From Nitrosopumilus sp. (GTDB lineage: Archaea; Thermoproteota; Nitrososphaeria; Nitrososphaerales; Nitrosopumilaceae), in NCBI GenBank assembly GCA_965224195.1, contig OZ245040.1, positions 1,504,001-1,568,000 on the forward strand: a stretch of DNA of 64,000 nucleotides. Reading direction: 5' to 3'. How positions within the stretch are numbered: position 1 is the stretch's first letter; the number at the start of each line of letters is the position of its first letter. Shown here one piece after another: positions 3,148 to 64,000 of this stretch. The notes beneath the pieces are model-generated. The model saw nothing but the letters and a program-made list of their open reading frames with translations. It was not told the origin of the DNA and did no database searches. The position numbers and the translations under genes are program-made.

Positions 3148-3771
3148 TCACATTCACTTATTTGGTGTTGTTTTTATTTTACCTGCCAAAAAATTATCAA
3201 TAACCGAGTTTGCATAATTTATTTGGTTTGCCGTCCATTGTGTTGTCATAGTTTTAGATGATATGTTTTTAGGTTTAAAGTTTTATCCAATTAGGGTTGT
3301 CCAATATAATGCATTCATAATGTGGAGCAGAAAATACAACTCCAGACTGTTTTACGTACTGCAGTCATAAGTTTTTAGTGAATGGATCATTTGGGAAACT
3401 TGCGCTTAATAATCTTGTTTGCTTCTTGTTTTGACAGATTATGCATGCCATCCGTCGTGACAGTAAGGTGGGTGTAAAATTGCAGTGCTTCCCCGCCTAT
3501 CTCCTTTTGGCATATATCACACATCATACCTTGTGATGATCCGTATGCGTGATTTAACTATTTTGGATGGACGTCTGTGCAATGTACTGGGGCATGACTT
3601 TTGCGCATCAGACAGAACATAGTTTTCATAAAAGGCACATGCAGCAGCAGATTCAGATGCGGTTGCATATGTTTGCTAACGTATCAGGCGCTATGATATG
3701 CAGCGTTGCATTTGTATTGTTTTTATCCCTGATAGTGACCATCCCATATGCTTTGCCTTTTGGTCATATGG

Positions 3772-3871
3772 TTTTAAAAATTCTTTAGTTGTGTGCTTTA
3801 CAATTACAGGCTTATTTTTTTAAAAATTCTTTAGTTGTGTGCTTTACAATTACAGGTTTATTTTTTTAAAA
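3772..3871. repeat. 46-bp tandem duplication
   Basis: ttttaaaaattctttagttgtgtgctttacaattacagg(c/t)ttattt twice, bounded by ttttaaaa microhomology. Confidence 0.9.
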
Positions 3872-5540: not shown

Positions 5541-5556
5541 ATTTATAATTGTATTT

Positions 5557-5774
5557 TATTTTTTTATAGTTATCATAATATTGTCAGAATCTTTTATTTT
5601 ATAGTTATCAGAATCTTTTATTTTATAGCTGTCATAATATTGTCAGAATCTTTTATTTTATAGCTGTCATAATATTGTCAGAATCTTTTATTTTATAGCT
5701 GTCATAATATTGTCAGAATCTTTTATTTTATAGCTGTCATAATATTGTCAGAATCTTTTATTTTATAGTTATCA
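5557..5774. repeat. 35-bp tandem repeat (about 6 units, some partial) at 3' end of PKD-like gene
   Basis: ttttattttatagctgtcataatattgtcagaatc at 5616, 5651, 5686, 5721 plus partial or variant units. Confidence 0.95.
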
Positions 5775-7314
5775 CTAATGGCTAAAGTAAAATTATATTT
5801 TCCTATAACATCAGGTGTGAATTTAGACACAGATTGAGTCGGGTTTGTTATTTTTGAATCTGTCAAAGTGCTTTGTATTGGAACATTGCCAAATATTTCC
5901 CACACATAATCCAAAGAATGATTTAAAGAATCCTTACTTTTAGAACCGTCAAGTATTATTTCAGCAGAGTTTAGAGTAAAATTAGCGGTACCATCAGTGT
6001 AGGTTTCATTCTCCCCAGCATTTGCATGAATTGAAGATATTGCAACATTTGATGAATTATTGCCTGACTTTCTGCCATCACTAACAGCTAGGTTAAATTC
6101 AAACATACCTGCAATATCAGGAATTGTAAAAGTTGGTTTTGCAATTGTTTTATTCATTAGAACATCTAAACCTTTTATTTGTGTCCAAGTATAGAATAAC
6201 TTTGAATCATCTTGATCATTGCTTTTAGAACCATCCAAAGTTATCAATGCACCACTTGGAAAATGCCCTCCAGTTCCAGCGTCAGCTACTGGTGGATTGT
6301 TAAAAGAACCTTTAGCAATTGGCAGTACATAAAATGAAACCAGCTTGTTATCTCTTTGTTTCCCAAACACAGAATTTATCTCCAAAGTGTATTGCCCACG
6401 AGTGTTGGAATTATCCGGTACAAGCCAGCTGTTAGCATATGAGCCAGATGCAGAAGTCACACCTTTGAATTTATGAACTGTTTGGCCATCAGGATTCTTT
6501 ATGGTTCCATCTATTGCAACATCAGATAGTACATTTCCTACAAAAGAGTTGTAGTCATCAACATATTGATGCGTGCATCATCAGTAACTAGTATATCATA
6601 TCGCAGCGTATTTTTCCACTCTACATGATGCGGAACAGAAATGTATACCTTTGTTTTCTGTACTGTATTTACAACATCTTTTTTTGGATCCTACTTTGCC
6701 GTCTTTTTAAAATCATCAGTTATCAATTTCATACCCGTCTGTTTTTGTGATTCCTTCCAGTCCTCCATAATGCCATGAGATGTCTTGCCATTCATATTCT
6801 TTGTATTTTGCTCTGCAATTCTTTCCAGCCTGTCATCTGATATCTTTTTTGCCTCTGCTGTTTTTCTCTCCTTTTCTAGCAATTGTTTTTCTTTAAAAGC
6901 CATGTCATGTTCAGACTTGACAGACTCTAAAGTTTTTTGATTCATTTCATCCAACAGATTGCGCTGTGCAGTGTTTTTTGCAGGCTCTGATACATCAGAC
7001 AAGAACCTCAATCTGACGCCATCATCATCATCTGCAAGCTTTGCAATTATCAGATACTTGTAATCTGCTACTTGTTTTGCCAGAATTTTTATATCATTAT
7101 CAAATATGTACAGCTTTTGATTTTTATAAATTAACTTTATGTCATCCCATGAATACTGGACATCCTTGTGTGTTATCTTGCCTGATGTTGTATCGCCCTG
7201 AATCTGCATGTGTATTTTAGAATCATGATGCGACCCCCTGATATCTTCAGAGTAAGATAACGGAATAAAACTGGACAAAATTAGCAATGCCATAAAAACA
7301 TAAAGCAGTGCCAT
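5723..7314 (-). pseudogene. Secreted/surface protein with two PKD/REJ-like Ig domains, split by a nonsense codon (6691) and a frameshift (about 6575)
   Basis: Signal peptide MALLYVFMALLILSSFIPLSYS; frame continues past the TAG (DPKKDVVNTVQKTKVYISVPHHVEWK); NNPPVADAG...TLDGSKSND...YTWTQ motifs. Confidence 0.75.
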
Positions 7315-7829: not shown

Positions 7830-8528
7830 TTAGTTTATCCTCCTCAAAAACTCTAGATATTTTGTTGGCGAGTTGTCAGTTGATTCAGGCAAATAAAACA
7901 TTTGGATTGTCTCAAGCATCTCATCTGCATAGTCTGCAAACTTTACCTTGTGTATCCTGCACTTTCCGTCCTCACATGACTCTATGATGACGATTTGATT
8001 TGCAACAAAATTTGTCTCCTCATAATGCATAAAGGCATACATTGCAGCCTGCAGATACCACACGTCCCGTCGTTTGCCGTAGCGAGGCTTTCGCGTCGTC
8101 TTAAAATCAATGACGGATGAGACGCCATCATATGCTGCAATGACATCTGCAGTTCCGGCCACTTTCAGGGTGTCAGACTTCATAATTTTTTCCAGTCCCC
8201 GAACATCGGATATTTTATTGAGATGTTCTGAAATCTGTGACACGTGTGCTGATGCAACCAGGCCCAGCTTTGTCACATTTAGTCCTGAAAGTTTTTCATA
8301 GAGAGCCTGATGTACTGCTGTTCCAATTTTTGCCGCATTGTTTCGTCTGTCATTTAATGCTTCTTGCGACAGATTCACATATTGCATCCAGGACTTGTCC
8401 TGCATCGAATCAAGCAGGGTTGTAGCTGATGCATAGATTGAATCATCATGAGAGTAATATCGAAAATCATTCTCATCATGACAAATTATTTTTTCCTCTT
8501 GAATTTGTATTTGATTCATATCTATCAT
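7830..8528 (-). CDS. PD-(D/E)XK exonuclease (viral RecB/YqaJ-like)
   Basis: Y.SATTLL, GTAVH, AGTADVI, VIDFKT, LQAAMYA motifs; no Cas4 C-terminal Cys cluster. Confidence 0.85.
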   Translation of the reverse strand: MIDMNQIQIQEEKIICHDENDFRYYSHDDSIYASATTLLDSMQDKSWMQYVNLSQEALNDRRNNAAKIGTAVHQALYEKLSGLNVTKLGLVASAHVSQISEHLNKISDVRGLEKIMKSDTLKVAGTADVIAAYDGVSSVIDFKTTRKPRYGKRRDVWYLQAAMYAFMHYEETNFVANQIVIIESCEDGKCRIHKVKFADYADEMLETIQMFYLPESTDNSPTKYLEFLRRIN

Positions 8529-33901: not shown

Positions 33902-34366
33902 ATGAAAACTAAGAATTCCAAAAGACTAGATTCAATCAAAGCAGCTCATGAATTAGAAAGAACTCGTTCAAGTTCAAGAATGGAAGATTATTTGGAAATT
34001 ATTGGAGAATTAGTAGAGTTGAAAGGATATGCAACCACTTTGGATATTTCAAGATACATGAATGTCAGTGCACCAAGTGTAACTAAAATGCTTCAAAGAC
34101 TAGAGGAAAATGGGTTTTTAGAATATGAAAAATATCATGGAATCAATCTTACAGATAAAGGAATGCAAGTTGCAGAAGGAATAAGACAGAAACATGGAAT
34201 ATTATTAGAATTTTTTGAAATTTTAGGAGTAGGATATGAAACAGCCAACCAAGATGCAGAAGGAATAGAACATCACTTAAATCCAAAAACAATAAAACAA
34301 TTAAGAAAATTTATTACTTTTCTGAAAGCAAATCCAAAAATTATTGATAATTTTAAAAATCTTTAA
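33902..34366 (+). CDS. DtxR/MntR metal-dependent regulator
   Basis: MEDYLEII...SAPSVTKML...DAEGIEH. Confidence 0.93.
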   Translation: MKTKNSKRLDSIKAAHELERTRSSSRMEDYLEIIGELVELKGYATTLDISRYMNVSAPSVTKMLQRLEENGFLEYEKYHGINLTDKGMQVAEGIRQKHGILLEFFEILGVGYETANQDAEGIEHHLNPKTIKQLRKFITFLKANPKIIDNFKNL

Positions 34367-36173
34367 GATATAATTTGATATCATTTTGTGAAGATGAAAA
34401 ATCCATCAAGGTTCGTGCCACATCAGAACGTTTTGGAATTTTAAGTTGTCCTTTTTTTCCAATTCTAACAGATGCAACGAATTTTTCATTGGCATAGATA
34501 TCAGTATGCATTGATGTAAAATCCCTATTCACAGTAAGAAGAATTGCAGTTTTTGATTCAGAGAAACTAAATGGTAAATCATTAGATGTTAGTGATATAT
34601 CATCAGGTGATTTTTCAACAACGTCAATATGGACTTTGAGTAATTTTTCAATTTCATTAATGTTTGAGCCTCCACGTCCAATAATGGATGCAATATTTCG
34701 CTCATTGACCATAACTTTAACTCGATTATCAGATAAAATTTCAACTTCTGCATGTGGATCATATTGTCTGAAAGTTTCTTTAATTTTATCCTCAGCAAGT
34801 TTTTCTATTCCAATTTTATCGACTTTTTTCCCTACTGGAACTATAACATTTTCTTCACCAAAAGTGTAAATCTCATGTTCTAGAACATCATTCTCAAAAT
34901 TTCTAATTTCAATTACGGGTCTAGCCAAATCAGATTCAGTCATCCCAGTTGGAACTTTTACTTTTAATTCTAAATCATATACCATTTGAATTTCACCGTC
35001 TTTTACAAAAACTACAGTATCCAAAACATTTGGAATAATTCCTAATTCAATTTTACCAATGAATCGCTGAATTGCATCTAATGGAGAATTTGCATGTACA
35101 ACGCCAACCATTCCAACTCCAGTTAATCTCAAATCAGCAAAAGTAGCAAAATCTTCCCTTCGTCTTACTTCATCAAAAATTGTATAATCAGGTCTAACTA
35201 ATAATAAAATATCAGCAGAATTATCAAAACTTCCATCAAGTTTACTGTATTGAGTTACTCCCGAATCAACTTGTAAATCTCGTGGAGATTCAAATGTTTT
35301 TACAATCTTTCCCTGTTTATGATAAAAATTTGCAAGTCCTGATGCAAGTGTACTTTTTCCAGAACCAGGAGCACCTGAAATAACAATACCTTCTGCACTA
35401 CCAGAGAATCGTTCCATTAATTTTTCAGAAATAGAATAATCTTCAAGAGATAATTTTACAATTGGATGAACTATGGTAATTTCAAAAGATTCTGAAAAAG
35501 GAGGATGTGTAATTGCAATTCTATAATCTTGATGTTGAACAACAGATGCGCCTGTTTTAGATATTTCCAGAGCAGTAGAATCAGATATGTTCACGACATC
35601 CAAAATTTGTGCTGAAATCATTTCTAAATAATCCTTAGATAGAAGATCATCATTTAACTTTGTCAACACAAAGGCTCCAGGTTTTCCTTTTTTTGCCAAA
35701 GGGCATTGATTTTCTTTTAGATGAACACTCATTGTTTCAGAATCAAAATATTTTAAAAATTCTAAAGATTCATTTTTAATTTCAGATTTTAAAAATACTG
35801 TTTCAACACCTTCTCCCTGCGCCACCAAATGTTGAACATGATCAGAGGTGTACAGTATTGCATTGTTTTGTTTAGCCATATCTACTATTAGAGAATCAAT
35901 TCTCCCACTACTAGCAAGATTCACATCATCTGAAGAAGGATGTGTTCCATCCACAACAATACTTAGCCCATAACTTCCAGACAATAATTTCAGCTTTCGA
36001 ATCTTCTCAAGACCAATAAATCCCTGTTCTTTTTTCTTCGATGCCTGTGATTGCAACTCATCAAATACAGCTTGAGGAATAATGATTTCAAAATTTCTAA
36101 CACTCCCAGATTCAATTTGGGATACAAGTTGGCCATTGATAATTACGCTAGTATCAGCTACAATTTTTGACAA
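34353..36173 (-). CDS. PINA: PIN + P-loop ATPase + KH domain protein
   Basis: VADTSVII, GAPGSGKST, RPDYTIFDEVR, IIGRGG. Confidence 0.93.
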   Translation of the reverse strand: MSKIVADTSVIINGQLVSQIESGSVRNFEIIIPQAVFDELQSQASKKKEQGFIGLEKIRKLKLLSGSYGLSIVVDGTHPSSDDVNLASSGRIDSLIVDMAKQNNAILYTSDHVQHLVAQGEGVETVFLKSEIKNESLEFLKYFDSETMSVHLKENQCPLAKKGKPGAFVLTKLNDDLLSKDYLEMISAQILDVVNISDSTALEISKTGASVVQHQDYRIAITHPPFSESFEITIVHPIVKLSLEDYSISEKLMERFSGSAEGIVISGAPGSGKSTLASGLANFYHKQGKIVKTFESPRDLQVDSGVTQYSKLDGSFDNSADILLLVRPDYTIFDEVRRREDFATFADLRLTGVGMVGVVHANSPLDAIQRFIGKIELGIIPNVLDTVVFVKDGEIQMVYDLELKVKVPTGMTESDLARPVIEIRNFENDVLEHEIYTFGEENVIVPVGKKVDKIGIEKLAEDKIKETFRQYDPHAEVEILSDNRVKVMVNERNIASIIGRGGSNINEIEKLLKVHIDVVEKSPDDISLTSNDLPFSFSESKTAILLTVNRDFTSMHTDIYANEKFVASVRIGKKGQLKIPKRSDVARTLMDFSSSQNDIKLYLKDF

Positions 36174-36523
36174 ATTTTAGTTCAATGGATTAGATGATTA
36201 ATGCCCTAATTTACTTTCTTAAATTAAAGACTTGATGATTCTAAATGCCATTAATTGCTTAAAGAAAACAAACTTTCAGAACTAAAATCACTCACACTCT
36301 TAACAAAATGGATATTTTTTCATTCAGATTATGGAACAACTACATGAGAAAAACAAGGAATTTTATGAAAATTGTACCAAGTATTTTGAATTTTTACGTA
36401 AAAAATCAGGTACAGACTATAATTTTGAAGATGAGTACTATTTCACCATGCCTGCAATATCAAGGCAGAGATAGCAGAAGATTTACGAGCAACTCACAAT
36501 TGCATAGAATATGAAATACAAGA

Positions 36524-36666
36524 TTACAGGATCTTGCAGATAAGGCACTCAAATATGCAGAACAGTCAGGTGCTCAATATTGTAACATTAGAGCAGAACA
36601 ACAAGAACGAAGATCAGTATTAATAGGAAAAAATCAGTAGAATATGTTAAAGTTGATAACGATGCA
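36524..36666 (+). pseudogene. TldD/PmbA-like N-terminal remnant at the island boundary
   Basis: LQDLADKALKYAEQSGAQYCNIRAEQQERRSVLI, then frameshift and truncation. Confidence 0.55.
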
Positions 36667-36718
36667 TCTTGTAAGAAAAATGACCAAAAAAACAAGGACT
36701 AAATCAAAGGTGTAAGAA

Positions 36719-37940
36719 TTATTCATCTGCTGGCATTGTGGGCACGAACTACTGACTGCAAGTATTGCACTGCCTTTGCCTACTCTATCTTCATCGCATC
36801 TATTACCACTGGGTCTGACAGCTTGTCTGATGATGGCACTATCCAGATGGTTACTGGCTCTTTCAGGTCATTAAATGACTCATCAAAGAGCCCAGAGTTT
36901 GAATAATATTCCTTTACGTATTGCAGTGCACGATCCTTCTCATAGGATATGATACCATCATAGTTTGAGTTTGTCCTGCTCATTACATTTTTGATGTCAT
37001 CCTGGTATCGTACAAACTCGTCTCTTTCCAGCTAGAGCCACGTGCCAAAGTCGTTATGTGTCCATGCATATCCCCACTGGTCAGCAGTCAAAAATGTCAG
37101 AGCTTGAGCAGCAACAGCAGGTCGTTATGTGTCCATGCATATCCCCACGGGTCAGCCCACAGGTTGCCGGCTCTGTCTGTCTGGGTCAGTACCAGCTGGT
37201 GGATGCTTGCATATTCCTCTGAGTGATACATGCCGCTGCTTACAATGTGTCTCACATCAGCAGGGTTTAGTGACTCCCCAATTACGACAAAGCCGTGATT
37301 AAAATAATTCATGTGGATTCGTCTGTCAGTATCGACTGCTCCAATAGCAAATACCTTGTGTATTGGCGTCTCGTTGAAGTCAAACTGCAGCGTTACAGTG
37401 TGGCATTTTGGCGTTGTGTCTGTGCGCAGGCATTTGCTTGGCTCTATGGTTGCAGCAGTTACCGTACCATCCAGTAACCCTTCTGCATCAAGCACATCAA
37501 TTCTGACTACATAGTTATTGGGACTGGTATAGTTTCTAGACAGGTGTACCTTTACGCTTGTCTCTACATTATATACATCTCCAAGTCTTGGCACTCCAAA
37601 GAAAAACTCCACATAAGATAATATCTTGTCTGTGCATACCTTGCCTTGCAGATAGTTTGTGGTGTCTACCAGGATTTTGTCCTCAGGATACTCAGTGTGC
37701 CAGTCCGTCACGTCAACGCAGTTTTCATTCAGGCACATGCCGTTATTTACAATTAAATCATGTGTCAACTGAGACTTGCCAAAGGTTGGCTTTTTGTAAT
37801 CCTGCTGTATGATTGCAACATCATTGTTTGCAGCTGTGGTTGTTGCATCAACTGTTCCAATAGTTGTTGAAAATAATATTGATGCTGATACCAGTAGTAG
37901 AATTGTTATGTGATACTGCGTGTACCCCCTCCCCCTTCAT
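36719..37940 (-). pseudogene. Secreted surface-protein pseudogene (frameshift in G-tract, 71-bp insertion, two TAG codons)
   Basis: Reconstructed: MKGEG/YTQYHITILLLVSASILFSTTIGTVDA...KPTFG...VDVTDWHTEYP...ADPWGYAWTHND/FGTWL*LERDEF...MSRTNSNY. Confidence 0.8.
37050..37156. repeat. 36-bp direct repeat flanking a 35-bp insert
   Basis: gtcgttatgtgtccatgcatatccccac(t/g)ggtcagc at 37050-37085 and 37121-37156. Confidence 0.95.
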
Positions 37941-38206
37941 TGTTTGCTTTAAGCTCATTTACAATTATAGGATTTATATAATATTTAATACATCTTTCAT
38001 TCACAACCAGCCAGCGATCTCCTGACGTATGGTTTTGATTTCATATATTCATACTGCAATTATTCAACCGACTGGAATATTGAGGAGCCAAGTTTCAAGA
38101 AATATTCTCAAAATTTACAGCAAAAAGAATTTTGGAAAAAAGATTCTCAAATATGCAATAAAATTAGTCTATTCATCCGGCAAGATGAATCTGTAAAAGA
38201 TATCAG

Positions 38207-38545
38207 TTGACTCATCATGATGGGTCAATCAAAGAAATCACATCAGTTTATGCAGACAAGGAATACGACAGCACAGCAATCAGAAATTATTTGAAAAATA
38301 GAAACATTACCCCATGCATTCCAAAAAGAAATTTCAAGAAAAACAGTACTGAAAAATATAGTTACAAAAATTACAACAAGGTGAGATTTGTTGTGGAGAG
38401 ATTTTTTGCATGGTTCTGGTCCACTATGGTTGAACAATGGTTTTCATAGAACTAGAATCAGACATGAAAGAATTACAGATAATTATTTGTCATTTGCTTA
38501 TTTGGCATCAATTATGATGTATTGGAGGGTTTTAGGATAAGTTGA
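38207..38545 (+). pseudogene. IS5-family transposase C-terminal remnant
   Basis: YADKEYDS...IPKR...RFVVERFFAW, then shifted frame GFHRTRIRHER...WRVLG*. Confidence 0.85.
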
Positions 38546-38548
38546 ATA

Positions 38549-38654
38549 GATGAGTTGCGCAATTGATTCAAAATGCAAGTAAAATTTAGTCTCAGATCTC
38601 GATACTTAACACGAAGAAGATCCATAGTTGAGGTCTTGATTACTTAACAGAACC
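38549..38654. mobile_element. Orphan IS5 end plus IS6-type end
   Basis: ta-GATGAGTTGCGCAATTG identical to the 13263 TIR; ttacttaaCAGAACC ending at 38654. Confidence 0.75.
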
Positions 38655-38931
38655 TAATAATAACATCATAATCATCATATAGATTGAATTTTTCTTATAG
38701 ACCTGGCCATATGCTATTGTATCCTTTTCTGGCTCGGGTTTAGATTTTGGTTCTGGTTTAGTTTTCCAAAATCTCTTAAAATGATTTAACATCATGAGGT
38801 TTTTTAAAGAAATATACTAAAAGAAAGTATTTTAACTAAAAAGATTAACGTTAACGTGTTTTAGAATTTTCTTTCCTTTTCATTTGATTGTATTTTCTTC
38901 ATTACATCGTCATAGTTAATTTTCCATCAGG

Positions 38932-39039
38932 TAAGAAGTGTGTAAATATTTTTCCTATGTTTCCATCTTGAGAATTTTGTTAAATGTAATGTCTATGCTC
39001 TTTTAAGAAGTGTGTAAATATTTTTCCTATGTTTCCATC
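38932..39039. repeat. 36-bp direct repeat flanking a 36-bp insert
   Basis: taagaagtgtgtaaatatttttcctatgtttccatc at 38932-38967 and 39004-39039. Confidence 0.95.
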
Positions 39040-39390
39040 AGGTAAGATTTTAAAAGTTATGATAACTGTTTGATTGCCATTAGTTGAAGTGAATCCTATC
39101 TTCCGGTCTGTAAGATAAGATGTGTCTCCTAATGATTGGACGTTTTTATATTTGGATGTAAAATTCATGTACTCTGGAGTTTGTTTGACTTTGTTTTCAA
39201 TACTGGTAAAAGGTTCCCATACAAGATCTCCGTAGATATTTCCAGATGAAAATAAATTCCAAATTAAACTGTATTGTGTAGCTCCCAAAATGACGAAAAT
39301 GGAGAGAAAAATAATTAAAATAATACCTGTCAATGGATTATTTTTAAAAAAAGAAAAAAAGTTAGAAATGAGCATGCCACCATTGAACAT
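38980..39390 (-). CDS. Membrane-anchored protein, C-terminus altered by the insert
   Basis: TM LTGIILIIFLSIFVILGA; overlaps the stop of the upstream gene. Confidence 0.7.
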   Translation of the reverse strand: MFNGGMLISNFFSFFKNNPLTGIILIIFLSIFVILGATQYSLIWNLFSSGNIYGDLVWEPFTSIENKVKQTPEYMNFTSKYKNVQSLGDTSYLTDRKIGFTSTNGNQTVIITFKILPDGNIGKIFTHFLKEHRHYI

Positions 39391-40693
39391 AGCTAGGCCA
39401 CCACAATCCAGGCCAAATATAACTTAGAACCTCAGGATTTGGTTCTTGACCATAGACGATATAGTCATAGCTTGATCTATCAATAATTGCCTGATCTCTG
39501 AACTGACCACTATTACAATTTCCTGGAGCGCCACTACTGACAACTTTGGCATAATCATATGGTCTAGAGGCTTCACCACTAAATGTTGCATATGAAGAAA
39601 CTTGATGATATCTATCACGCAGTAAATCATGCTGAGCTTGATAGAGGCTGCTGAATCCAGATTCGGAATCAATAACGCCTATATCTGGATGAGGATTAGA
39701 CATTCCATAACTTCCACAAGCACTAGGGCTTGAATTTGTACTGTGTCTTACTTTGGTGATTTCTGTATCAGACTCAACTCCAAATGCTGATTTTATAGGG
39801 GTTGAGACTTGATCATACATTACAAATACAATTTGCGTGTCATCTGTCAAATGTTCAGTATGAACTATACTCTCCACAGGATCAAACATTTTATGGAATT
39901 GTCCTGATTCCAATGATTCTATTGCATCATCAGATTGTTTCTCATCAACATCAGTTTGATCATAAAATGCATCGGCCATCTTATTGTGTATATCTGCAAA
40001 GTCTACAATTATCTGAATTTCAGAATTTGTCAATCCTTCAGATCTTAGAGTCTTTTTGTCTACAATCATGTGCATTGCATCATCAAAGGATACAAAATTC
40101 TCTGCATGTTCAAAAGCATGTCCAATTTCATCTATGGGATAACCAGTTACAATAGCATCCTCGTTCTCTTGGGCATACTGTCTGTCCAATCTGTCATTTA
40201 GCTTTGCAAGTCTATTCTCGGCCTTGGCAAGCTTTTCACTCAATACCTCAACTTTGTTGGAATTTTCTTTTGATTCCTGTGCAATCTTTACAGCTAACTT
40301 GGAAATTCGCTTCTCAACCTGATTGATTAGATGCTTAGTTGTTTCTATTTGCCCTTTTTTGGCATCTAGTTTATCCTGAATTTTGGCATGTTTTGCTTCT
40401 AACTTGACTAGTTTCTGCTCTACATTACCAATCTTTTCTTCAATGTCTTGAATGTGTTTTTGGTTTCCTTGTTCCTGTGCTTTGAGAAGTTTTTCTGCAA
40501 AGTCTGCCTTTTTGCTTTCAATGTTGGCAATCTCGTCTGCAATCTTTTGGAGTTTGATCTCAAGTTTGTCGATCTTTTTTTGTTTTTTATAGTCTGAGGT
40601 TGCAGCATCTGCCATATTCATAGATGAAAATGGTAGAATCATTGCAACAATCAACGAAGCAAACAAAAACGTTTTCGTTCTTCTATTTGTCAT
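39362..40693 (-). CDS. Secreted coiled-coil protein with Trp-rich C-terminal domain
   Basis: Signal peptide TKTFLFASLIVAMILPFSSMNMADA; long heptad region; EPNPEVLSYIWPGLWWPSYVQWWH. Confidence 0.85.
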   Translation of the reverse strand: MTNRRTKTFLFASLIVAMILPFSSMNMADAATSDYKKQKKIDKLEIKLQKIADEIANIESKKADFAEKLLKAQEQGNQKHIQDIEEKIGNVEQKLVKLEAKHAKIQDKLDAKKGQIETTKHLINQVEKRISKLAVKIAQESKENSNKVEVLSEKLAKAENRLAKLNDRLDRQYAQENEDAIVTGYPIDEIGHAFEHAENFVSFDDAMHMIVDKKTLRSEGLTNSEIQIIVDFADIHNKMADAFYDQTDVDEKQSDDAIESLESGQFHKMFDPVESIVHTEHLTDDTQIVFVMYDQVSTPIKSAFGVESDTEITKVRHSTNSSPSACGSYGMSNPHPDIGVIDSESGFSSLYQAQHDLLRDRYHQVSSYATFSGEASRPYDYAKVVSSGAPGNCNSGQFRDQAIIDRSSYDYIVYGQEPNPEVLSYIWPGLWWPSYVQWWHAHF

Positions 40694-41079
40694 TAAATTA
40701 GAATAAAATTATTTAGATTTAAAGATGATGATCAACTCATATAAAATATCATTAATCATATACCAAAATACTAAACAACAATACTAGGAACTCAAGTAAC
40801 AGATCAACGCTTTTATCTCAGATCATCACTGAATTTACCATGTCAAATAGTACAAAAAGTGCCAAATGTCCTCAGTGTCAGTTGACTGTCCGGGGAGAGT
40901 ATCTATGATATTTGGATATCGTGTAAACCAGAGGAAAAAGAAATCCAGTCCTGGTGTAAGGGATGCCGCTCTACTTCTTAACTGTCATACTCTATTAATG
41001 GCAGGGCTTTATCCTATTGATATTTCTCCATATGTTAGAATAATGCCATTAATTCCATTTTATATGTGGTATAATCACA

Positions 41080-41973
41080 GGTTCTGCTAACTTATCGAGG
41101 GATAAACTAGACTGAATTTTCCTTGTATAAACTGGCGTTTTCAATAATAGTTTTCCATCTATTCTTACCATCAACTTCAATCATGGCTTGTTCTGCTGGT
41201 GTCTTGCCTTTCAAAGAACCGTGTTTCTTTGTGAAATTGTAATAGGCCTTCATTCCGTCAATCAAAGGAGTATCAAATTTCTTTAATCCTCGGAATACTT
41301 TCTCTCTGTCTCTTATTTCTCCATTCAATCTCTCCATCTTGTTATTGCTGCCTCTGCCTCTTCTGCCTGCAATGTGAATATGTCCGACATGGTTGGTTTT
41401 CTTTCCAAAGACTTTCTTGCTTGACTTCATATATGCTGGCAGTCCATCAGTTACAAAGTGTGCAGGGGATTTTCCAATCTTCTTTTTTGTCAATTCCAAT
41501 AATGTGCCTGCATTATGCTGGAATTTTGTCTCTGACGTGTCACTAGCCAACCAGTAACGAGTATCATCATCCATAGAGGCAAAGAGATAGTTTTGTTTTC
41601 CTGCGATTTTAATCCAAACCTCATCTGCTCTGACCATAGCCCTGTCATTGGTTCTTGGTACAATGTCATTTAGATATTTTGAAACCATTGTGGAATATTT
41701 ACAAATCCATTTGTAAACTGCAACATCAGATACCTCAATACCCATCATCTCATAATGGTTTGAAATATCCCTTGTGGACATCCACGAATAATACATTTGT
41801 AATGCATCTGTAATTGTATTGGGGCTATCTTGTTTTCTCAAATCCAAAGTTTAAGCTAAATTTCTTCTTGCAGTCTAGACATTCAAAGATTCTAACTTTA
41901 CCGTTTTTGTTCTTTCTAAATCCATCTTTTCTTAATCTGCCTGAATCACAGTATTTGCATAGTTCTAATTTTG
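41080..41973 (-). mobile_element. IS6-family element, frameshifted and 5'-truncated transposase with TIR at 41080
   Basis: ADEVWIK, YLFASMDDDTR, VTDGLPAY, NNKMERLNGEIRDRE; upstream Zn finger CKYC...CLDC in another frame; GGTTCTGCTAAC. Confidence 0.9.
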
Positions 41974-42460
41974 GGTTCTGTTGCGTTAGTGGGTGTTAAG
42001 TAAAAATCTTATTCGTGTTGCGTGTCGGGTGTTTTTGAGGCGTTTTGAATTATGGTCAACCATTTGTTGTTTCCTTTAATGTCAATGCCTGCCCTCAAAG
42101 CTGGCGTATTACTATACAAGCTCATGTGAGGTCTAATGTAATTGTGATATAGCTTGATTCCTGTTAAAGCTGGACTGTCGTCTTTTTTCAAACCACGAAA
42201 TACTTTCTCACGATCCCGAAACTCACCGTTCAATCTTTCCTGTATGTTGTTGTTGGCTAATTGATTCTTAAAGTGAACATCTTTGACGTGCTTGCTTGGC
42301 TTGTGTAGGAAATTCTTTGGTGCAAACTCCTTTTTGAATGCGTCATTATACGCTGGCAATCCATCAGTTACAAATGTAGAGGGAACTTTCTTTGCAACTT
42401 TCTTACCCATCTTTAGAAGACTTTGAGCGTCATGCTTGAACTTACTATCTACCACTTCCT
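41974..42460 (-). mobile_element. Second IS6 element (3' half) abutting and cutting the first
   Basis: GGTTCTGTTGCG at 41974; VTDGLPAY...NNNIQERLNGEFRDRE...HNYIRPH. Confidence 0.9.
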
Positions 42461-42641
42461 GAATTGAAACATGGTGATGAATTTGAGAAAAGAGTCAAGC
42501 ATCTAAAACATGATATGCAAGAAAAATACTTTGATCGTGCTGAATTTGTTAAAATGGGGCAACAAAAAATGAATGAATCCCTATTTCGTGATTTTATTAA
42601 ATTCACAAACAAGATAAACACCAAATAATCACGCTTCTACT

Positions 42642-43090
42642 ATGATACATGATTTTATTTTTAACATGACTCATCTACTTGATATATTTGCATTAGCTGC
42701 AAACATAACACTCATAGTTACAGTCTACATATTATTCTCTCAATCCAGAAAGAAAAACAAAATTGCATCCATCCAATTATGTCGAGATTTGTTAAATCTC
42801 ACAGGTAAAGGTAATAAACTAAAAGAGACAAACAATTTCATAGTAAATAATGATTAGACAATTGCAAAAAAATTGATATTGAAAACTTTCTAAACGAATA
42901 TGATGATATTGCATTTTATTGGTCTGATGGTATTGTACATATAAAACACATAAAAGAAATGCATGGAGCTATTCTCTCAAAAATCAAAACTGATAAACTA
43001 ATCCAAAATATCATAAAAGAAAAAAGAAAAGAAGATGAGTTTTATTTCTCCAATTTGGTAAAATTATTGAAAAAGATTAAAACTATCTAG
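42642..43090 (+). pseudogene. Frameshifted membrane-anchored hypothetical gene
   Basis: TM-bearing 71-aa ORF continuing in another frame (IDIENFLNEYDDIAFYW...). Confidence 0.5.
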
Positions 43091-43503
43091 TACCTGTTCT
43101 GCCACCTGTGAGATATTTCTCAAACATGACGGTAAGTTTTGCCCCTGTTGCAAAACTCAGCTAAGAACAAAACCAAAATCTAAATTGGGTAAACAAAAAT
43201 GGACTGAAAGACACGGACTGCCATTCCTCTAATGTAAGAACCGTAATTGGAAAGAACGGATTGCCTTTATGTACTAGTAAAATGTTAAGGAAGGATGAGA
43301 AATAATGTACCCAACGCTGAAATAATGCTTTAATATGGTAATTATGATTTAAAACATATGGATTCATTACAGAGTTTTGTACATAATGTAGTAAGAGATG
43401 ATAATTCAGATACAAAAGGACTTCAAGATCTTATGAAGATATTAAATGATCTTGATAGTGAAGAGAAACCATTATACATTCGTCGTAAAGTGACATCTAA
43501 CAG

Positions 43504-44400
43504 ATGAAGGATATTATAACTGACGGAATTTTTACTAATATTTTAAATCAAAACAATCATGATTATAGACAAAAGCTGATAAAACTAATCGAGGATAATC
43601 TTGGTGGCAGGATCATATGTTATATTGAAAACCCAGAACATCCATTTGCATTTATCAATATGGATGATGCAATTGCATTTGAGGATATGTTGCGTTCTAC
43701 TGGAAAATCTAAAAAAGGATTTTTAATCTTAAATTCTTCTGGCGGTGATGGAAATGCGGCTGAAAAACTACTGTCTATGTGTAGAGAAAGATTTACAGAT
43801 GGTTTTACGATAATTGTTCCAAACTTTGCAAAAAGTGCTGCAACTATGATGTGTCTTGGAGCTGATAAGATTATGATGGGTTATCTTGCAGAGCTTGGCC
43901 CTATTGATCCACAGATCTCTATTCCTAACGGAGTTCCCATACCTGCCCGTTCGTTCATTGATGGTTTGGAAATGGTTAGACAAAATGTGAAAGAGGGTGA
44001 TCCTCCCACCATGTATTTGTCTATGTTACAAAAAGTACGACCTGAGTTGATTTCTCTTTGTAATTCTGCAATTGAAGATGCAAAATGTTTTGCGACTGAT
44101 TGGCTTACCAAGTACATGTTAAAAGATAATCCGGCACACGCCAAAAAAGTTTCTGAATGGCTGTCTGATGGTAAAACATACAAATCTCATGGTAAAATGA
44201 TTAACTATAATGAATCTAAAAATATTTTAAAATTGAATGTTGATTTAATTGATTGTAATTCTGAGCTTTGGTATTGGATTTGGGAATTGTATGTGAGTTC
44301 TATTGTTTATATTCAAAGACAGGGTCCTCACATTGCCAAGCTTTTTGAGAGTTCGACGGTTTCTTTAACTTCATCTGTTGTTCTACCCACACCTAAATAG
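43504..44400 (+). CDS. ClpP-fold serine protease (SDH/SppA-like)
   Basis: LNSSGGDGNAAE, VPNFAKSAATM, ELGPIDPQ, KSHG. Confidence 0.9.
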   Translation: MKDIITDGIFTNILNQNNHDYRQKLIKLIEDNLGGRIICYIENPEHPFAFINMDDAIAFEDMLRSTGKSKKGFLILNSSGGDGNAAEKLLSMCRERFTDGFTIIVPNFAKSAATMMCLGADKIMMGYLAELGPIDPQISIPNGVPIPARSFIDGLEMVRQNVKEGDPPTMYLSMLQKVRPELISLCNSAIEDAKCFATDWLTKYMLKDNPAHAKKVSEWLSDGKTYKSHGKMINYNESKNILKLNVDLIDCNSELWYWIWELYVSSIVYIQRQGPHIAKLFESSTVSLTSSVVLPTPK

Positions 44401-44505
44401 GGCATTGTAAAGTTGATGGGGCTTTAGATCCTAATTTTCTCTTGTCAACTTTCGAGACCTACATTGTTACTTTTCGGTTGCTGTGAAAACAATCTAAATT
44501 TGGAA

Positions 44506-45566
44506 ATAAAATATGTATTTGCAATGATGGATGATGAAACCAGATTCTGGATTGCTCAAGAAGTTGGTGACAGAAAAGAAGGACATAACGCAGGAGGGTT
44601 ACTACAAAAGGCAAAACAAGTTACACAAACAAAACCTAAAGTGTTCATCACAGATGGTCTAGGATCATATCATGAAGCATACAAGAAAGAATTTTGGACA
44701 TTGAAAAGACGTAACAGAACATTACACATCAGACATATTCACTTGCAAGATGACATGAACAATAACAAGATGGAACGACTCAATGGAGAAATTAGAGATA
44801 GGGAAAAAGTAATGAGAGGAATAAAGAAAAAAGATTCAGTTACACTAACTGGTTATCAGTTGTTTCACAATTACATTCGACCACACAGTGCATTAGGTGG
44901 ATTGACACCTAGTGAAAAATGTGGTATGGAGATTCAAGGAGACAATAAATGGATTACATTAATTCAGAATGCTAGTAAGAAATGATTATTGATTATCTTG
45001 ACAATGAACAAAGAACAGGATTTTTCTATCTCTCATTGGATTAATTACAACTTCTACTCTTCCATCAATGATAAACAACATGTGTCCTGCACTTTTTTGA
45101 ACATGTGTACATTCAACAAATGCAGGATGTTTTTCAGGATGTTCAAATTCAACAATGTCTGTTTTGAATTTGGTTAGAAGATCTACGGAAGGATCAGAAA
45201 CATACTCAATATTTACAAAATATTGTGACCACGTAGGTGTTTTACATGTCCAAAAACGAGTCAATATGTAACAAAAACTACTGAGGGATTAAATATCTAC
45301 TTCTTGATCTTCCGTATGCGTCTCAAATTTCTTAGATGATTCTTGTGCTATTTTGAAATGACGTTCTTCCCAATGTCTTTTCTCGGATTTCATGTTATAA
45401 TGTAACATAATACATGTTATAAATTTTCGAAGTTTTACAACAATCACACACGATTATTAAGAAATTTACATAATCTTAATAATATTTGATATTTGGACGG
45501 TACCACTCAAATCTCCATCAACTGACTTTTTACGCCTATTTTATCAACCGCAGGCTTTACAGAACC
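44506..45566 (+). mobile_element. IS6 element 3' part: transposase fragment (to 44985), two passenger ORFs, TIR at 45560-45566
   Basis: KYVFAMMDDETR, ITDGL, NNKMERLNGEIRDRE; ctttaCAGAACC. Confidence 0.8.
44986..45264 (-). CDS. Hypothetical passenger protein
   Basis: 92-aa ORF, preceded by a 34-aa ORF at 45289..45393. Confidence 0.55.
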   Translation of the reverse strand: MTRFWTCKTPTWSQYFVNIEYVSDPSVDLLTKFKTDIVEFEHPEKHPAFVECTHVQKSAGHMLFIIDGRVEVVINPMRDRKILFFVHCQDNQ

Positions 45567-45642
45567 CAAAAATGACTAAAACTGATCCGTTTTTCGTATA
45601 AAATGGACCAAACGGTTATAACGTAATAATGTGAAAAGTACG

Positions 45643-45752
45643 GTATGCAACTTACTGTAACATATAACATTGAGAAAACTCTAAATATTCAGTTAGCCTA
45701 AATGCGTTAGACTAAGTATGCAACCTACTGTAACATATAACATTGAGAAAAC
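45643..45752. repeat. 37-bp direct repeat flanking a 36-bp insert
   Basis: gtatgcaac(t/c)tactgtaacatataacattgagaaaac at 45643-45679 and 45716-45752. Confidence 0.95.
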
Positions 45753-45939
45753 CACTAGTGGTTTTATTGGACAATGTGTTCAGTTTCCACAAATATTCAC
45801 AGAAGCAAAAACTGAAACTGCACTAAAAAAAGAAATGGATGTTGTTTTAGATGGTTATTTCAAAGCATGTCCACAAGCACACAAAATGATTAAGAAAAAT
45901 GTAGGACATGGAACGTACGAAATCAAGAAAAACGCATAA
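45718..45939 (+). CDS. HicB-like antitoxin
   Basis: IEKTTSGFIGQCVQFPQIFTEAKTETAL pattern. Confidence 0.7.
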   Translation: MQPTVTYNIEKTTSGFIGQCVQFPQIFTEAKTETALKKEMDVVLDGYFKACPQAHKMIKKNVGHGTYEIKKNA

Positions 45940-55666: not shown

Positions 55667-56422
55667 TTAATCATTTTTTACTTCAATTTTATTTTTATTG
55701 AATTTGTTGTAACCCTCTTTGTTGTAGCCCTCTTTGTTGTAGCCTAGGTGATCATATCCAAGTCTATCATACCCGTCTTTGTTGTGCCCATTGCTATCAT
55801 ACCCATCTAAATCATACCCGTCTTTGTTGTATCCATTTACATCATATCCATTACTATCATATCCATTTTTATCATATCCGTCTTTGTTAAACCCGTCTTT
55901 GTTAAACCCGTCTTTGTTGTATCCCTTTAGATCATACCCGTCTTTGTTAAACCCATTTTTGTTGTATCCATCTTTGTTGTATCCTTTTTTGTTGTACCCA
56001 TTTTTGTTGTATCCATCTTTGTTGTATCCTTTTTTGTTGTACCCGTCTTTATCAAAATTTATTTTTGTATCAATGTGAATCCCATCAAGAGAAAAACCAC
56101 GATTATCGTACCCGTCTTTGTTGTATCCCTTGTTGTTGTATCCATTTTTGTTGTATCCGTCTTTGTCGTAACCCTTGTAATTGTATCCATCTTCGTCGTA
56201 TCCATCTTTGTATCCCTTTTTGTCATATCCATTTTTGTTGTAACCCTTTTTGTCATATCCATTTTTGTTGTAACCCTTTTTGTCATATCTCTTGTTGTTG
56301 TATCCATCTTTATCAAATCCATTTTTGTTGTAACCCTTTTTGTCATATCCATCTTTATCATACCCATCCAAGTCATACCCAAACTTGTCAAATGTTTTAC
56401 TAAATTTATCAAACAAACCCAT
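55667..56422 (-). CDS. G(Y/F)(D/N)KX pentapeptide-repeat protein
   Basis: About 40 five-residue repeats (15-bp period) in two blocks around RGFSLDGIHIDTKINF. Confidence 0.85.
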   Translation of the reverse strand: MGLFDKFSKTFDKFGYDLDGYDKDGYDKKGYNKNGFDKDGYNNKRYDKKGYNKNGYDKKGYNKNGYDKKGYKDGYDEDGYNYKGYDKDGYNKNGYNNKGYNKDGYDNRGFSLDGIHIDTKINFDKDGYNKKGYNKDGYNKNGYNKKGYNKDGYNKNGFNKDGYDLKGYNKDGFNKDGFNKDGYDKNGYDSNGYDVNGYNKDGYDLDGYDSNGHNKDGYDRLGYDHLGYNKEGYNKEGYNKFNKNKIEVKND

Positions 56423-63570: not shown

Positions 63571-64000
63571 CTATTTTTTAGTAATAGTGGGTTTGTTTTG
63601 ATTAGGGTTGTTTGGTTTGTTTGATTTCTTTTGATTAGGGTTGTTTGGTTTGTTTGATTTCTTTTTAGGTTCTTCACTAACTAATTTTTGGTATAATTTG
63701 AAGGCCTGATCAACATTTTTGTTATTATGAACAATTGCCCTAACGGCTTTAATCATTGAAACTGGATGGTCAGATTGCCAAATGTTTCTACCCATATCAA
63801 CACCTACGGCACCGCCTTTAATTGCATTAAATGTTAATTGTAAAGCATCACGTTCAGGAATTTTTTTTCCACCTGCCACAATAATTGGGACAGGACATGA
63901 TTCAACTACTTTTTCAAAATTATCACAATAGTATGTTTTAACAATATGAGCACCTTGTTCTGCTGCAACACGACATGCTAATGAAAGATATCTAGCATCC
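63571..64000 (-). CDS. Class I aldolase (LsrF/DhnA family), 3' part; runs off the window
   Basis: GAHIVKTYY...VAGG...[13 protein letters not shown]; 11-aa tandem repeat [11 protein letters not shown] in tail. Confidence 0.88.

Follow-up and report, generated by a model that had tools for sequence, protein, structure and literature searches.

Natural off-target spacer integration as the very probable origin of isolated repeat-insert-repeat units in a Nitrosopumilus chromosome

Three repeat-insert-repeat units and their host genes

The window, a stretch of 64,000 nucleotides from the chromosome of a Nitrosopumilus sp., contains three short units in which a segment of local sequence occurs twice, separated by a fragment of similar length. 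They measure 36/35/36, 36/36/36 and 37/36/37 bp and consist of the following features, with positions counted from the first letter of the window:

37050..37085, plus strand: locus 1, first target copy, 36 bp, close to the 3' end of an ORF on the minus strand
37086..37120, no strand assigned: locus 1, insert, 35 bp, spacer-sized, no likeness to the flanks
37121..37156, plus strand: locus 1, second target copy, one mismatch to the first copy, period 71
38932..38967, minus strand: locus 2, first target copy, 36 bp, in the C-terminal portion of an ORF (~149 aa) on the minus strand
38968..39003, no strand assigned: locus 2, insert, 36 bp
39004..39039, minus strand: locus 2, second target copy, identical to the first copy, period 72
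45643..45679, plus strand: locus 3, first target copy, 37 bp, includes an ATG
45680..45715, no strand assigned: locus 3, insert, 36 bp
45716..45752, plus strand: locus 3, second target copy, 37 bp, one mismatch, period 73, carries an ATG at 45718

These units had been described in a first-pass annotation, which was also correct in calling the three repeats mutually unrelated and in the terminal letters that it quoted for them. The strand given for locus 2 is the orientation of the target motif as assigned by expectation-maximisation (EM) alignment. The window genes suffer only mild effects. At loci 1 and 2, the former situated in a member of a five-copy gene family, the C-terminal 4% and 10% of the genes are replaced, respectively. 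At locus 3, the ATG at 45718 opens a 73-aa ORF (45718-45939), and since the second target copy keeps this ATG, the gene is intact with its upstream region shifted by 73 bp. No second copy of the locus 1 insert was found in the genome, in viral contigs or, with up to three mismatches allowed, in 150 further genomes of the genus, and neither the locus 2 nor the locus 3 insert has a further copy in the genome or in viral contigs.

Locus 1 is spanned by contigs of two public runs from one study, X1 covering 36000-38044 and X2 covering 36000-38338; these are gap-free across the locus and show one differing letter, and the runs are possibly the source of the assembly itself. Contigs are interrupted at locus 2, at 38961 and 39010, presumably because the perfect 36-bp repeat exceeds the assembly word length, and no spanning piece for loci 2 and 3 is present among the listed contigs (contigs, not raw reads, being compared). 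No contig from any run examined skips an insert, and no joints indicating strain-level empty alleles were seen in the contigs. Uninterrupted versions of the target sites, which the annotation had proposed to look for in relatives, were found instead as paralogues within the genome for eight events, including locus 1; the available relatives are only 65-88% identical. Both flanks are conserved in these paralogous sites, except for event 1745573, in which the left flank has diverged. At locus 1, the alignment with four paralogues (C1:671-672k, 1017k, 1160k and 1602k) extends over the site, and in both of those aligned base by base the target is single-copy with the same flanks.

Genome-wide occurrence and agreement with CRISPR arrays

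Across the 2.06-Mb chromosome, 40 isolated units of this kind were catalogued. The majority (33/40) combine a duplication of 34-39 bp with a period of 70-76. In two others, with periods of 66 and 69, the duplication is 30 bp long, and the remaining five, whose duplications span 32-49 bp, are atypical. The target copies are identical in 28 units and differ by one base in ten and by two bases in two, while insert lengths range from 29 to 40 bp and are mostly 34-38 bp. When the whole chromosome was searched for isolated direct repeats in two copies (repeat length 30 bp or more, insert 15 bp or more), 32 were found at periods 70-76 compared to eight at all other periods between 40 and 150 bp, and simulating the genome with a third-order Markov model yielded no repeat longer than 15 bp. 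The genome-wide peak at about 36/36 that the annotation had anticipated is thus present, and the pattern is far beyond chance. No unit (0/40) contains a second spacer or a third repeat copy, and the suggestion that such units seed growing de novo arrays is therefore unsupported. Furthermore, the conserved repeat of a functional CRISPR array is absent, each unit repeating its own local sequence, and so is the conserved element of an IS, MITE or casposon, as the inserts are mutually dissimilar apart from copies of host loci.

The host carries three CRISPR arrays, with repeats of 36, 30 and 37 nt and spacers of 35-37 nt:

array with 36-nt repeat: 90 repeats, all perfect; spacers mostly 36-37 nt
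array with 30-nt repeat: 68 repeats, all perfect; spacers 36-37 nt
array with 37-nt repeat: 132 repeats, all perfect; spacers 35-36 nt

Each array adjoins its own cas1-cas2-cas4 set: a type I-G Cas4/Cas1 fusion with Cas2, a Cas4-Cas1b-Cas2 set, and an I-B-like Cas7-Cas5-Cas3 followed by Cas1-Cas2-Cas4. Three Cas1 genes exceed the Pfam cut-off, each with Cas2, an array and a separate or fused Cas4 alongside. The host modules and arrays, which the first-pass annotation had singled out for comparison, therefore have the same unit sizes as the isolated units: duplications of 34-39 bp match the 36- and 37-nt repeats, those of 30 bp match the 30-nt repeat, and inserts of mostly 34-38 bp match the array modes of 35-37.

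Units also recur in relatives of the genus, studied in 400-kb samples that were picked around cas loci and not at random. G009, which has I-G and 30-nt arrays, contains ten units of 36-39 bp and one of 30 bp; G118, with an I-G array, contains six of 35-37 bp and four of 27-32 bp; and G087, with a repeat of about 36 nt and a period of 70-72, contains two of 35 bp with a period of 69. In these samples, the duplication length follows the repeat length of each congener, at 36-37 bp in G009 and G118 for a repeat of 36 nt and at 35 bp in G087 for one of about 36 nt. In G009, two diverged paralogues have been struck at the same position by different inserts. Although G055 possesses a large I-G array together with a Cas4/Cas1 fusion, no units were found in its 400-kb sample, which implies either that the module is not sufficient or that activity differs by lineage; the repetitiveness of the samples does not account for this difference. 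G007 has no Cas1 hit, yet contains two candidate units in 400 kb (660163 and 517108), which need either a past loss of CRISPR-Cas or chance.

Within the host, the units are spread over most of the chromosome and are not confined to the island; the first-pass annotation had seen none in the core blocks. They are depleted in long ORFs, with 23/40 lying in ORFs of 100 aa or more compared to 85.4% of 3000 random positions (p=2e-5), and one 508-kb stretch lacks any unit (p=4.5e-4). Survivability accounts for this distribution as well as a target preference would. The presumed preference for mobile-island genes amounts to a non-significant enrichment, with nine of the 40 units in multi-copy or mobile sequence against a background of 12.8% multi-copy random 37-mers (p=0.09).

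Target motif and origin of the inserts

Alignment of the targets by EM revealed a motif, ct|GYTRCAAY, at one target end only, with a score of 206 compared to 161 +/- 6.9 for 25 random site sets (z ~6.5). This motif agrees with seven of the eight positions of the spacer-side terminus, on the bottom strand, of the 36- and 37-nt repeats (GCTTCAAT and GTTTCAAT), with a systematic difference at position 4, which is a purine in 39/40 ectopic sites and T in the host repeats. The target site thus resembles a normal integration site, namely a repeat terminus, of which either end may be the one mimicked. The initial G of the motif is present in 26/40 sites, whereas only 9/40 duplications end in C. As the conserved G is found at one end only, an attack in front of a G on both strands is not the general rule. 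In addition, a motif matrix derived from G000 gives the 11 events of G009 higher scores than random sites (P=0.002).

The inserts are of both self and foreign origin. Eight of the 40 correspond to other chromosomal loci along practically their entire length, with the match ending at the insert ends; among the 287 array spacers there is no such case (Fisher p=3e-8, based on 8/41, before one row was dropped). One such copy lies in the window:

8390..8426 (C1:1512390-1512426), plus strand: chromosomal copy of the insert of unit C1:173581, 36/37 bases identical

By its sequence, this segment is likely the source protospacer of the C1:173581 insert or a paralogue of one; another copy, at C1:794137-794173, is 34/37 identical. 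The flanks of nine self-derived protospacers display no clear or consistent shared motif (PAM). The 32 inserts without a genomic source have a mean GC content of 41.9%, which is equal to that of array spacers (40-42%, p=0.61) and differs from that of random genome 36-mers (mean 33.5%, p=8e-7). The inserts are not local templated copies, an origin that would have spoken against spacer acquisition. In G009, one ectopic insert shares 35 identical nt with part of a 40-nt spacer of its own I-G array, and the match extends one base into the adjoining repeat; in the chosen orientation, this insert is inverted relative to the spacer. Another G009 insert copies a G009 locus.

Proposed mechanism, alternatives and known systems

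Taken together, the units are very probably the result of natural off-target (non-canonical) full-site spacer integration by the CRISPR adaptation complexes of the host. The core of the first-pass interpretation, a Cas1-type integrase that writes spacer-sized DNA outside arrays and duplicates a repeat-length target, is hereby supported by the length peak, the modules, the non-local inserts and the empty sites, each of the annotation's checks that was run having turned out in its favour; Cas1-Cas2 itself is the inferred catalyst. In the proposed mechanism, Cas1-Cas2 loaded with a prespacer of ~35-37 bp would dock at a chromosomal site that resembles a repeat terminus (ct|G-Y-T-R-C-A-A-Y). The complex would then attack one strand at the motif and the other strand one repeat-length away, the distance being set by the complex and not by the sequence; the order of these two attacks is presumed, as is the module behind each event. 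For the type I-G module and the module with 37-nt repeats, this ruler would measure 36-37 bp, and for the one with 30-nt repeats 30 bp. Subsequent repair of the gaps would duplicate the intervening target, yielding target-spacer-target. Prespacers may be drawn from the pool that feeds the arrays as well as from host DNA, and the persistence of self-derived inserts at ectopic sites is presumably due to the flanking 'repeats' escaping crRNA processing, so that no autoimmunity would arise. The surviving events would be the insertions tolerated by selection, such as those in intergenic regions, at gene ends, in frame, or in accessory or mobile genes.

Local tandem duplication by replication slippage or break repair, with capture of a filler fragment and no integrase, could explain why some inserts copy distant chromosomal DNA, as templated repair insertions can. 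However, this explanation, which is very improbable, accounts neither for a fixed duplication of 36-37 or 30 bp with a fixed filler of 34-39 bp nor for the spacer-like rather than genome-like GC content of most inserts, and it predicts neither a one-sided motif nor lengths that equal the host repeat and spacer and shift with them across genomes; the rarity of isolated pairs at other periods (8 vs 32) argues against it as well. Equally little probability is assigned to insertion of short DNA by a different integrase or transposase with a stagger of about 36 bp. IS elements are indeed abundant in the genome (fragments of IS6/IS240 and IS4/5, with the multi-copy background given above), and G007 has candidate units without a Cas1 hit. 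On the other hand, the inserts have no common sequence or terminal repeats and are thus not a mobile element, the coexistence of two length classes (36-37 and 30) fits two array types, and one G009 insert overlaps an array spacer. Moreover, IS target duplications are much shorter, ranging from a few bp to about 15 bp, and those of casposons are about 14-15 bp.

Viruses and other mobile elements are known to carry mini-arrays and solitary repeat units. For integrated elements of thaumarchaea, stand-alone arrays have been described (PMC6563490), and the units could by this precedent be functional mini-CRISPR arrays carried on mobile elements or moved by recombination with arrays. This is extremely unlikely, as their 'repeats' are local gene sequence, locus-specific, single-copy in paralogues and unlike the host repeats beyond about eight terminal positions, whereas no unit has more than one spacer and eight inserts target the host's own chromosome. 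An assembly or sequencing artefact is just as hard to credit: support comes from contigs and not raw reads, with loci 2 and 3 unspanned by the listed pieces, but locus 1 is spanned in two runs, and exact target duplications with paralogous empty sites, inserts copied from afar, a target motif and the reappearance of such units in four further genome assemblies would not be expected of an artefact.

Off-target integration by host adaptation complexes, the preferred reading, relies on a mechanism that is itself already known. Casposon integration is catalyzed by casposases of the Cas1 family, one of which is the family 1 enzyme of Ca. Nitrosopumilus koreensis (PMC8464041), and shares with the units a Cas1-family integrase, the genus and a target-site duplication. 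Casposons are, however, kilobase elements with terminal inverted repeats, and all three Cas1 hits of the host adjoin arrays together with Cas2 and Cas4 (separate or fused). In type II-A arrays of Streptococcus thermophilus and S. mutans, 'ectopic spacer acquisition' likewise denotes integration away from the leader-proximal repeat, but there into an internal repeat of a genuine array instead of unrelated genes (PMC7999890, PMC5338259, PMC8265633). Pyrococcus furiosus Cas1-Cas2 performs off-target full-site integration in vitro at repeat-like sites one repeat-length apart (Grainy et al. 2019, PMC6698737). As proposed here, paired attacks on opposite strands occur at non-CRISPR sequences that share positionally conserved repeat bases, and the critical leader-repeat junction CCCT|GTTA resembles ct|GYTR. 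Those experiments were run on plasmid DNA in vitro, the repeat being 30 bp long and selection absent (PMC6698737), whereas the present events are chromosomal, filtered by selection and follow rulers of 36-37 bp and 30 bp.

Another close counterpart is Escherichia coli over-expressing type I-E Cas1-Cas2, in which off-target integration gives rise to 'neo-CRISPR' units (Nivala, Shipman and Church 2018, Nat Microbiol). Both cases involve a spacer-sized insert outside the array, duplication of a repeat-length target and sites that resemble normal integration elements. For natural genomes, a preprint citing that study calls the evidence for two other species 'circumstantial', and no report of natural events at the present scale was found in the literature searched. 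In contrast to the artificial over-expression in E. coli (Nivala et al. 2018), the units described here are fixed in wild archaeal genomes, with about 40 in one chromosome. They are associated with modules of type I-G and I-B-like type that include Cas4, are found again in congeners and never hold more than one spacer. These ~40 scars would show how, and at what cost, a spacer-writing enzyme misfires in nature, in an ammonia-oxidising archaeon.

Repeat-insert-repeat units and arrays of the host chromosome

The three repeat-insert-repeat units that the first-pass annotation had read as ectopic spacer acquisitions are present in the window at exactly the positions it gave. Each consists of a spacer-sized insert between two copies of a repeat-length target:

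Units in the window
Locus 1: 37050-37085 and 37121-37156; 36-bp duplication with 1 mismatch, 35-bp insert, period 71
Locus 2: 38932-38967 and 39004-39039; 36-bp duplication with identical copies, 36-bp insert, period 72
Locus 3: 45643-45679 and 45716-45752; 37-bp duplication with 1 mismatch, 36-bp insert, period 73

The three duplicated sequences show no relatedness to one another. At locus 1, roughly the final 4% of a 277-codon ORF belonging to a five-copy family is replaced, and at locus 2 roughly the final 10% of a 149-codon ORF. At locus 3 the duplication includes the start codon of a 73-aa ORF, and the gene remains intact. None of these ORFs (0/3) has a Pfam match. The surrounding island contains IS6/IS240 transposase fragments. 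A 1.06-kb element (window 44503-45567), which stops some 75 bp upstream of locus 3, covers an IS6/IS240-type DDE transposase ORF (44464-44985) and has copies on the chromosome (C1) at C1:1891042-1892105 (100% identical) and C1:1426911-1427975 (99%). Just upstream of the three-unit island lies a 606-aa ORF on the minus strand (34353-36173) with a PIN domain, a secretion-type ATPase domain and KH domains. The window also contains tandem repeats that have no connection with the units, namely an array of about 700 bp with a 15-bp period (55711-56406), a 35-bp period array (5546-5779) and two-copy tandems of 46 bp (3767-3858) and 33 bp (63592-63657).

Contigs from public sequencing runs were compared with the window. 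Locus 1 is spanned, with one letter differing, by contigs of runs X1 and X2, which belong to a single study that is possibly the assembly's own source; run X3, from another study, gave fragments only. Among four runs there were no insert-skipping contigs, and the contigs contained no joints. At locus 2 the contigs break within the perfect repeat, the likely reason being that this repeat is longer than their assembly word length, and no contig pieces are listed across locus 2 or locus 3.

The window corresponds to C1:1504001-1568000 of the host genome (G000; 2.06 Mb, GC 33.6%). With the arrays masked, a seed-and-extend scan of this genome for direct repeats at distances of 20-400 bp yielded 41 isolated candidates, or 40 units after exclusion of a protein tandem repeat (1911472). 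A duplication of 34-39 bp with a period of 70-76 is found in 33/40 units; two have a 30-bp duplication with periods of 66 and 69, and five are atypical (32-49 bp). The copies within a unit are identical in 28 cases and carry one difference in 10 and two in 2, and a third target copy is found in none (0/40). Isolated pairs of at least 30 bp number 32 at periods 70-76, compared to 8 at the remaining periods of 40-150, and the longest repeat in a third-order Markov genome is at most 15 bp. The host genome is unusually repetitive, with 12.8% of random 37-mers having another copy (at least 89% identity over at least 29 nt).

The chromosome carries three CRISPR arrays, all of whose repeats are perfect (290/290), and the only three Cas1 matches of the genome lie beside them:

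CRISPR arrays of the chromosome
Array A: C1:707205-713740; 90 repeats of 36 nt, spacers mostly 36-37 nt; type I-G, with a Cas4/Cas1 fusion, Cas2, Csb2, Cas3g and Cas7g
Array B: C1:942056-946529; 68 repeats of 30 nt, spacers 36-37 nt; Cas4, Cas1b and Cas2
Array C: C1:1457181-1466783; 132 repeats of 37 nt, spacers 35-36 nt; Cas7, Cas5, Cas3, Cas1, Cas2 and Cas4

Since the units, including the minority 30-bp class, match the arrays in length, they reproduce the repeat-plus-spacer geometry of the host. Array A is adjoined by archaeal ribosomal proteins, and the nearest Cas4/Cas1 relatives are from Nitrosopumilus or Nitrosopumilaceae. One 'spacer' of array A (C1:710968-711004) matches the I-G repeat of two congeners, G055 and G118, at 88% identity over 34 nt; either it was captured as a spacer from a different CRISPR array or it represents a copy of the repeat that has diverged. 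Furthermore, an orphan pair of degenerate I-G-like repeats (C1:1626224-1626335, period 74, no cas gene near) is probably a remnant array; one of its repeats has 4 substitutions relative to the array A repeat and is nearer the variant of the congener G009. A solo copy resembling the 30-nt repeat lies at C1:795315.

Empty sites, insert origin and target choice

For eight events, a paralogous chromosomal copy carries the target once with both flanks continuing. These are 1541050 (window locus 1), 1363425, 1639458, 1692970, 1718775, 1892823, 1973078 and the more diverged 1745573, where the left flank diverges. Such uninterrupted paralogous sites indicate that the units are insertions. The relatives compared were one genome per species, with 65-88% identity in this region.

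For eight of the 40 inserts there is a matching locus elsewhere on the chromosome; the match covers essentially the whole insert, and identity stops where the insert does. One of the source loci lies in the window (8390-8426). Such a match outside the arrays is found for 0/287 array spacers (Fisher p=3e-8, computed with 8/41). The 32 inserts without a genomic source have a mean GC of 41.9%, which is similar to that of array spacers (40-42%, p=0.61) and differs from that of random genome 36-mers (33.5%, p=8e-7). Ectopic inserts thus come from the mainly foreign pool that also supplies the array spacers, together with self DNA that the arrays do not retain. The GC of the array spacers, set against the 33.6% of the genome, also implies that the recorded invaders are richer in GC than the host. 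The exact 27-28-nt cores of the three window inserts have 0 matches in viral contigs, the locus 1 insert was found with at most 3 mismatches in 0/150 other genomes of the genus, and the host arrays contain no significant match to any of the 40 inserts. No consistent motif was found flanking 9 self-derived protospacers, the end-nucleotide biases of the inserts are array-spacer-like in both orientations and do not settle orientation, and no origin or terminus emerged from cumulative GC skew for comparison with the protospacer positions. A 39-kb region (C1:195937-234901) is the source of 3/8 self-derived inserts (195966, 207998 and 234901) and may be a hotspot where prespacers arise, for instance an active element or a site of frequent breakage.

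With the unit removed in silico, 23/40 sites fall in an ORF of at least 100 codons, compared to 85.4% of 3000 random positions (p=2e-5), and no unit lies within the 508-kb stretch at 174-682 kb (p=4.5e-4). Pfam matches were obtained for 11 of 30 flanking ORFs and not for the other 19. Among them are a short-chain dehydrogenase, a DsbA-like thioredoxin, an MCM-like protein, an IS4/5 transposase broken into two parts, a cupredoxin/beta-propeller protein that carries its insertion in frame, and two that merely abut their unit, one being a UvrD-like helicase-nuclease.

Expectation-maximisation (EM) alignment of the 40 sites over orientation and offset revealed the motif ct/G-Y-T-R-C-A-A-Y at one boundary (slash), with G as the first duplicated base in 26/40. 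The EM score was 206, compared to 161 +/- 6.9 for 25 random-site sets given the same treatment. Comparable conservation at the opposite boundary was not found, and conservation at one boundary only fits one half-site that is read by sequence and a second cut that is set by distance. The motif agrees at 7/8 positions with the spacer-side terminus of the 36- and 37-nt repeats (bottom strand) and at 6/8 positions with the leader-side starts of the 30- and 37-nt repeats, and may mimic either repeat end. In a second EM on 63 pooled events the register moved 2 bp onto 'CTG', with no further conserved block within the target or at its far end; because of this shift, the G000 motif and its cross-validation alone are reported. 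Targets lie in multi-copy sequence in 9/40 cases against the 12.8% background, an enrichment that is not significant (p=0.09).

Units in other genomes of the genus

Six congeners were sampled over 400 kb each, five of the samples being centred on cas loci and hence non-random:

Units in the sampled congeners
G009: I-G and 30-nt arrays; 10 units of 36-39 bp, 1 unit of 30 bp
G118: I-G array, Cas1 fragment elsewhere; 6 units of 35-37 bp, 4 units of 27-32 bp
G087: repeat of about 36 nt, period 70-72; 2 units of 35 bp, period 69
G017: 30-nt array only; 1 unit of 29 bp near the array, and one 36/36 unit on a three-copy element
G055: I-G only; 0 units
G007: no Cas1 match; 2 candidates

The counts exclude G009 1640343 (insert is a repeat copy) and 1873316 (29-bp duplication, 45-bp insert), G118 1464128 and 1482757, G055 1526592 (within a tandem region), and G007 599983 along with 75-bp protein repeats. 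In G017, three copies of one element (G017:C1:1221667, 1305769 and 1318834) carry the same unit with a variable G-run in the insert. A mobile or duplicated element seems to have taken this unit with it when it was copied, and the three copies are counted as one old event at most.

The 36-37-bp events of G118 and G009, where the only arrays of that repeat length are type I-G, indicate that the I-G module is capable of ectopic events. It does not always produce them, as G055 illustrates. Sample repetitiveness was considered as a reason for the zero count in G055 and rejected (0.19, with 0.16 in G009 and 0.04-0.21 in G000 blocks). The 11 G009 events score above random G009 sites with the G000 motif matrix (P=0.002). 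In addition, two diverged paralogues (G009:C1:1744491 and 1800775) each have a unit, starting GCTGCAAAAGG, at the same position. The duplication is 36 bp in both and the inserts differ, which points to recurrent, sequence-directed targeting. One G009 insert contains 35 nt identical to part of a 40-nt I-G array spacer, the match extending one base into the adjoining repeat, and another is a copy of a G009 locus.

Cas1-family matches, casposases included, occur in 52/121 sampled genomes of the genus. Many lie in open frames of about 410-450 aa, of which a genome often has several (e.g. G109, G100 and G048) and G000 none; we take their length to fit casposases rather than CRISPR Cas1.

Origin of the units and comparison with known systems

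Taken together, the sequence evidence fits off-target full-site integration by resident Cas1-Cas2 complexes, an explanation that we regard as very probable. The other origins considered fit poorly, whether the units are put down to slippage or repair, to another transposase, to mobile mini-arrays or to an artefact.

A further question is whether such integration serves the host. Because direct repeats of about 36 bp flank each insertion, recombination or slippage would excise it precisely and restore the gene. Ectopic integration in Nitrosopumilus could thus be a selected reversible gene switch or a means of mobile-element silencing, in which case often-misfiring adaptation modules would give rise to heritable changes that can revert (knock-outs, C-terminal swaps and displaced promoters) in accessory and mobile genes. 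We consider this quite improbable. It is much more likely that misfiring is a sizeable, measurable genotoxic cost of an active adaptation module, a cost that may help explain the patchy distribution of CRISPR-Cas in the genus.

Read as off-target Cas1-Cas2 integration, the units would represent about 40 fixed events on one wild archaeal chromosome, with more in the sampled congeners. They would provide direct evidence of mutagenesis by CRISPR adaptation (truncated genes, in-frame insertions and displaced promoters) in ecologically important ammonia oxidisers, as well as a natural map, testable in vitro, of the targets that type I-G and I-B-like Cas1-Cas2 intrinsically prefer and of their ruler length. 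Moreover, with 20% self-derived ectopic inserts versus none in arrays, they would form a less-filtered record of capture that bears on self/non-self discrimination at acquisition. On the practical side, such units will be misread by CRISPR finders and gene callers.

According to the portions of the respective papers available, off-target spacer integration has been described with over-expressed E. coli Cas1-Cas2 (Nivala et al. 2018) and in vitro with P. furiosus Cas1-Cas2 (PMC6698737), its natural frequency and cost are described as unclear, and accessory factors have been proposed to keep integration from occurring outside arrays (PMC9456107). For streptococci, 'ectopic' acquisition inside arrays is likewise described, and the available text of a thaumarchaeal mobile-element survey mentions arrays and no such units (PMC6563490). 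Full-text literature searches found no report of tens of natural ectopic spacers per genome, or of any in Nitrosopumilus. The motif at the target boundary resembles CCCT/GTTA, the junction that the available part of the P. furiosus study gives as critical for Cas1-Cas2 (PMC6698737). The mechanism is established, while the scale on which it is seen in nature and its recurrence across the lineage appear to be new.
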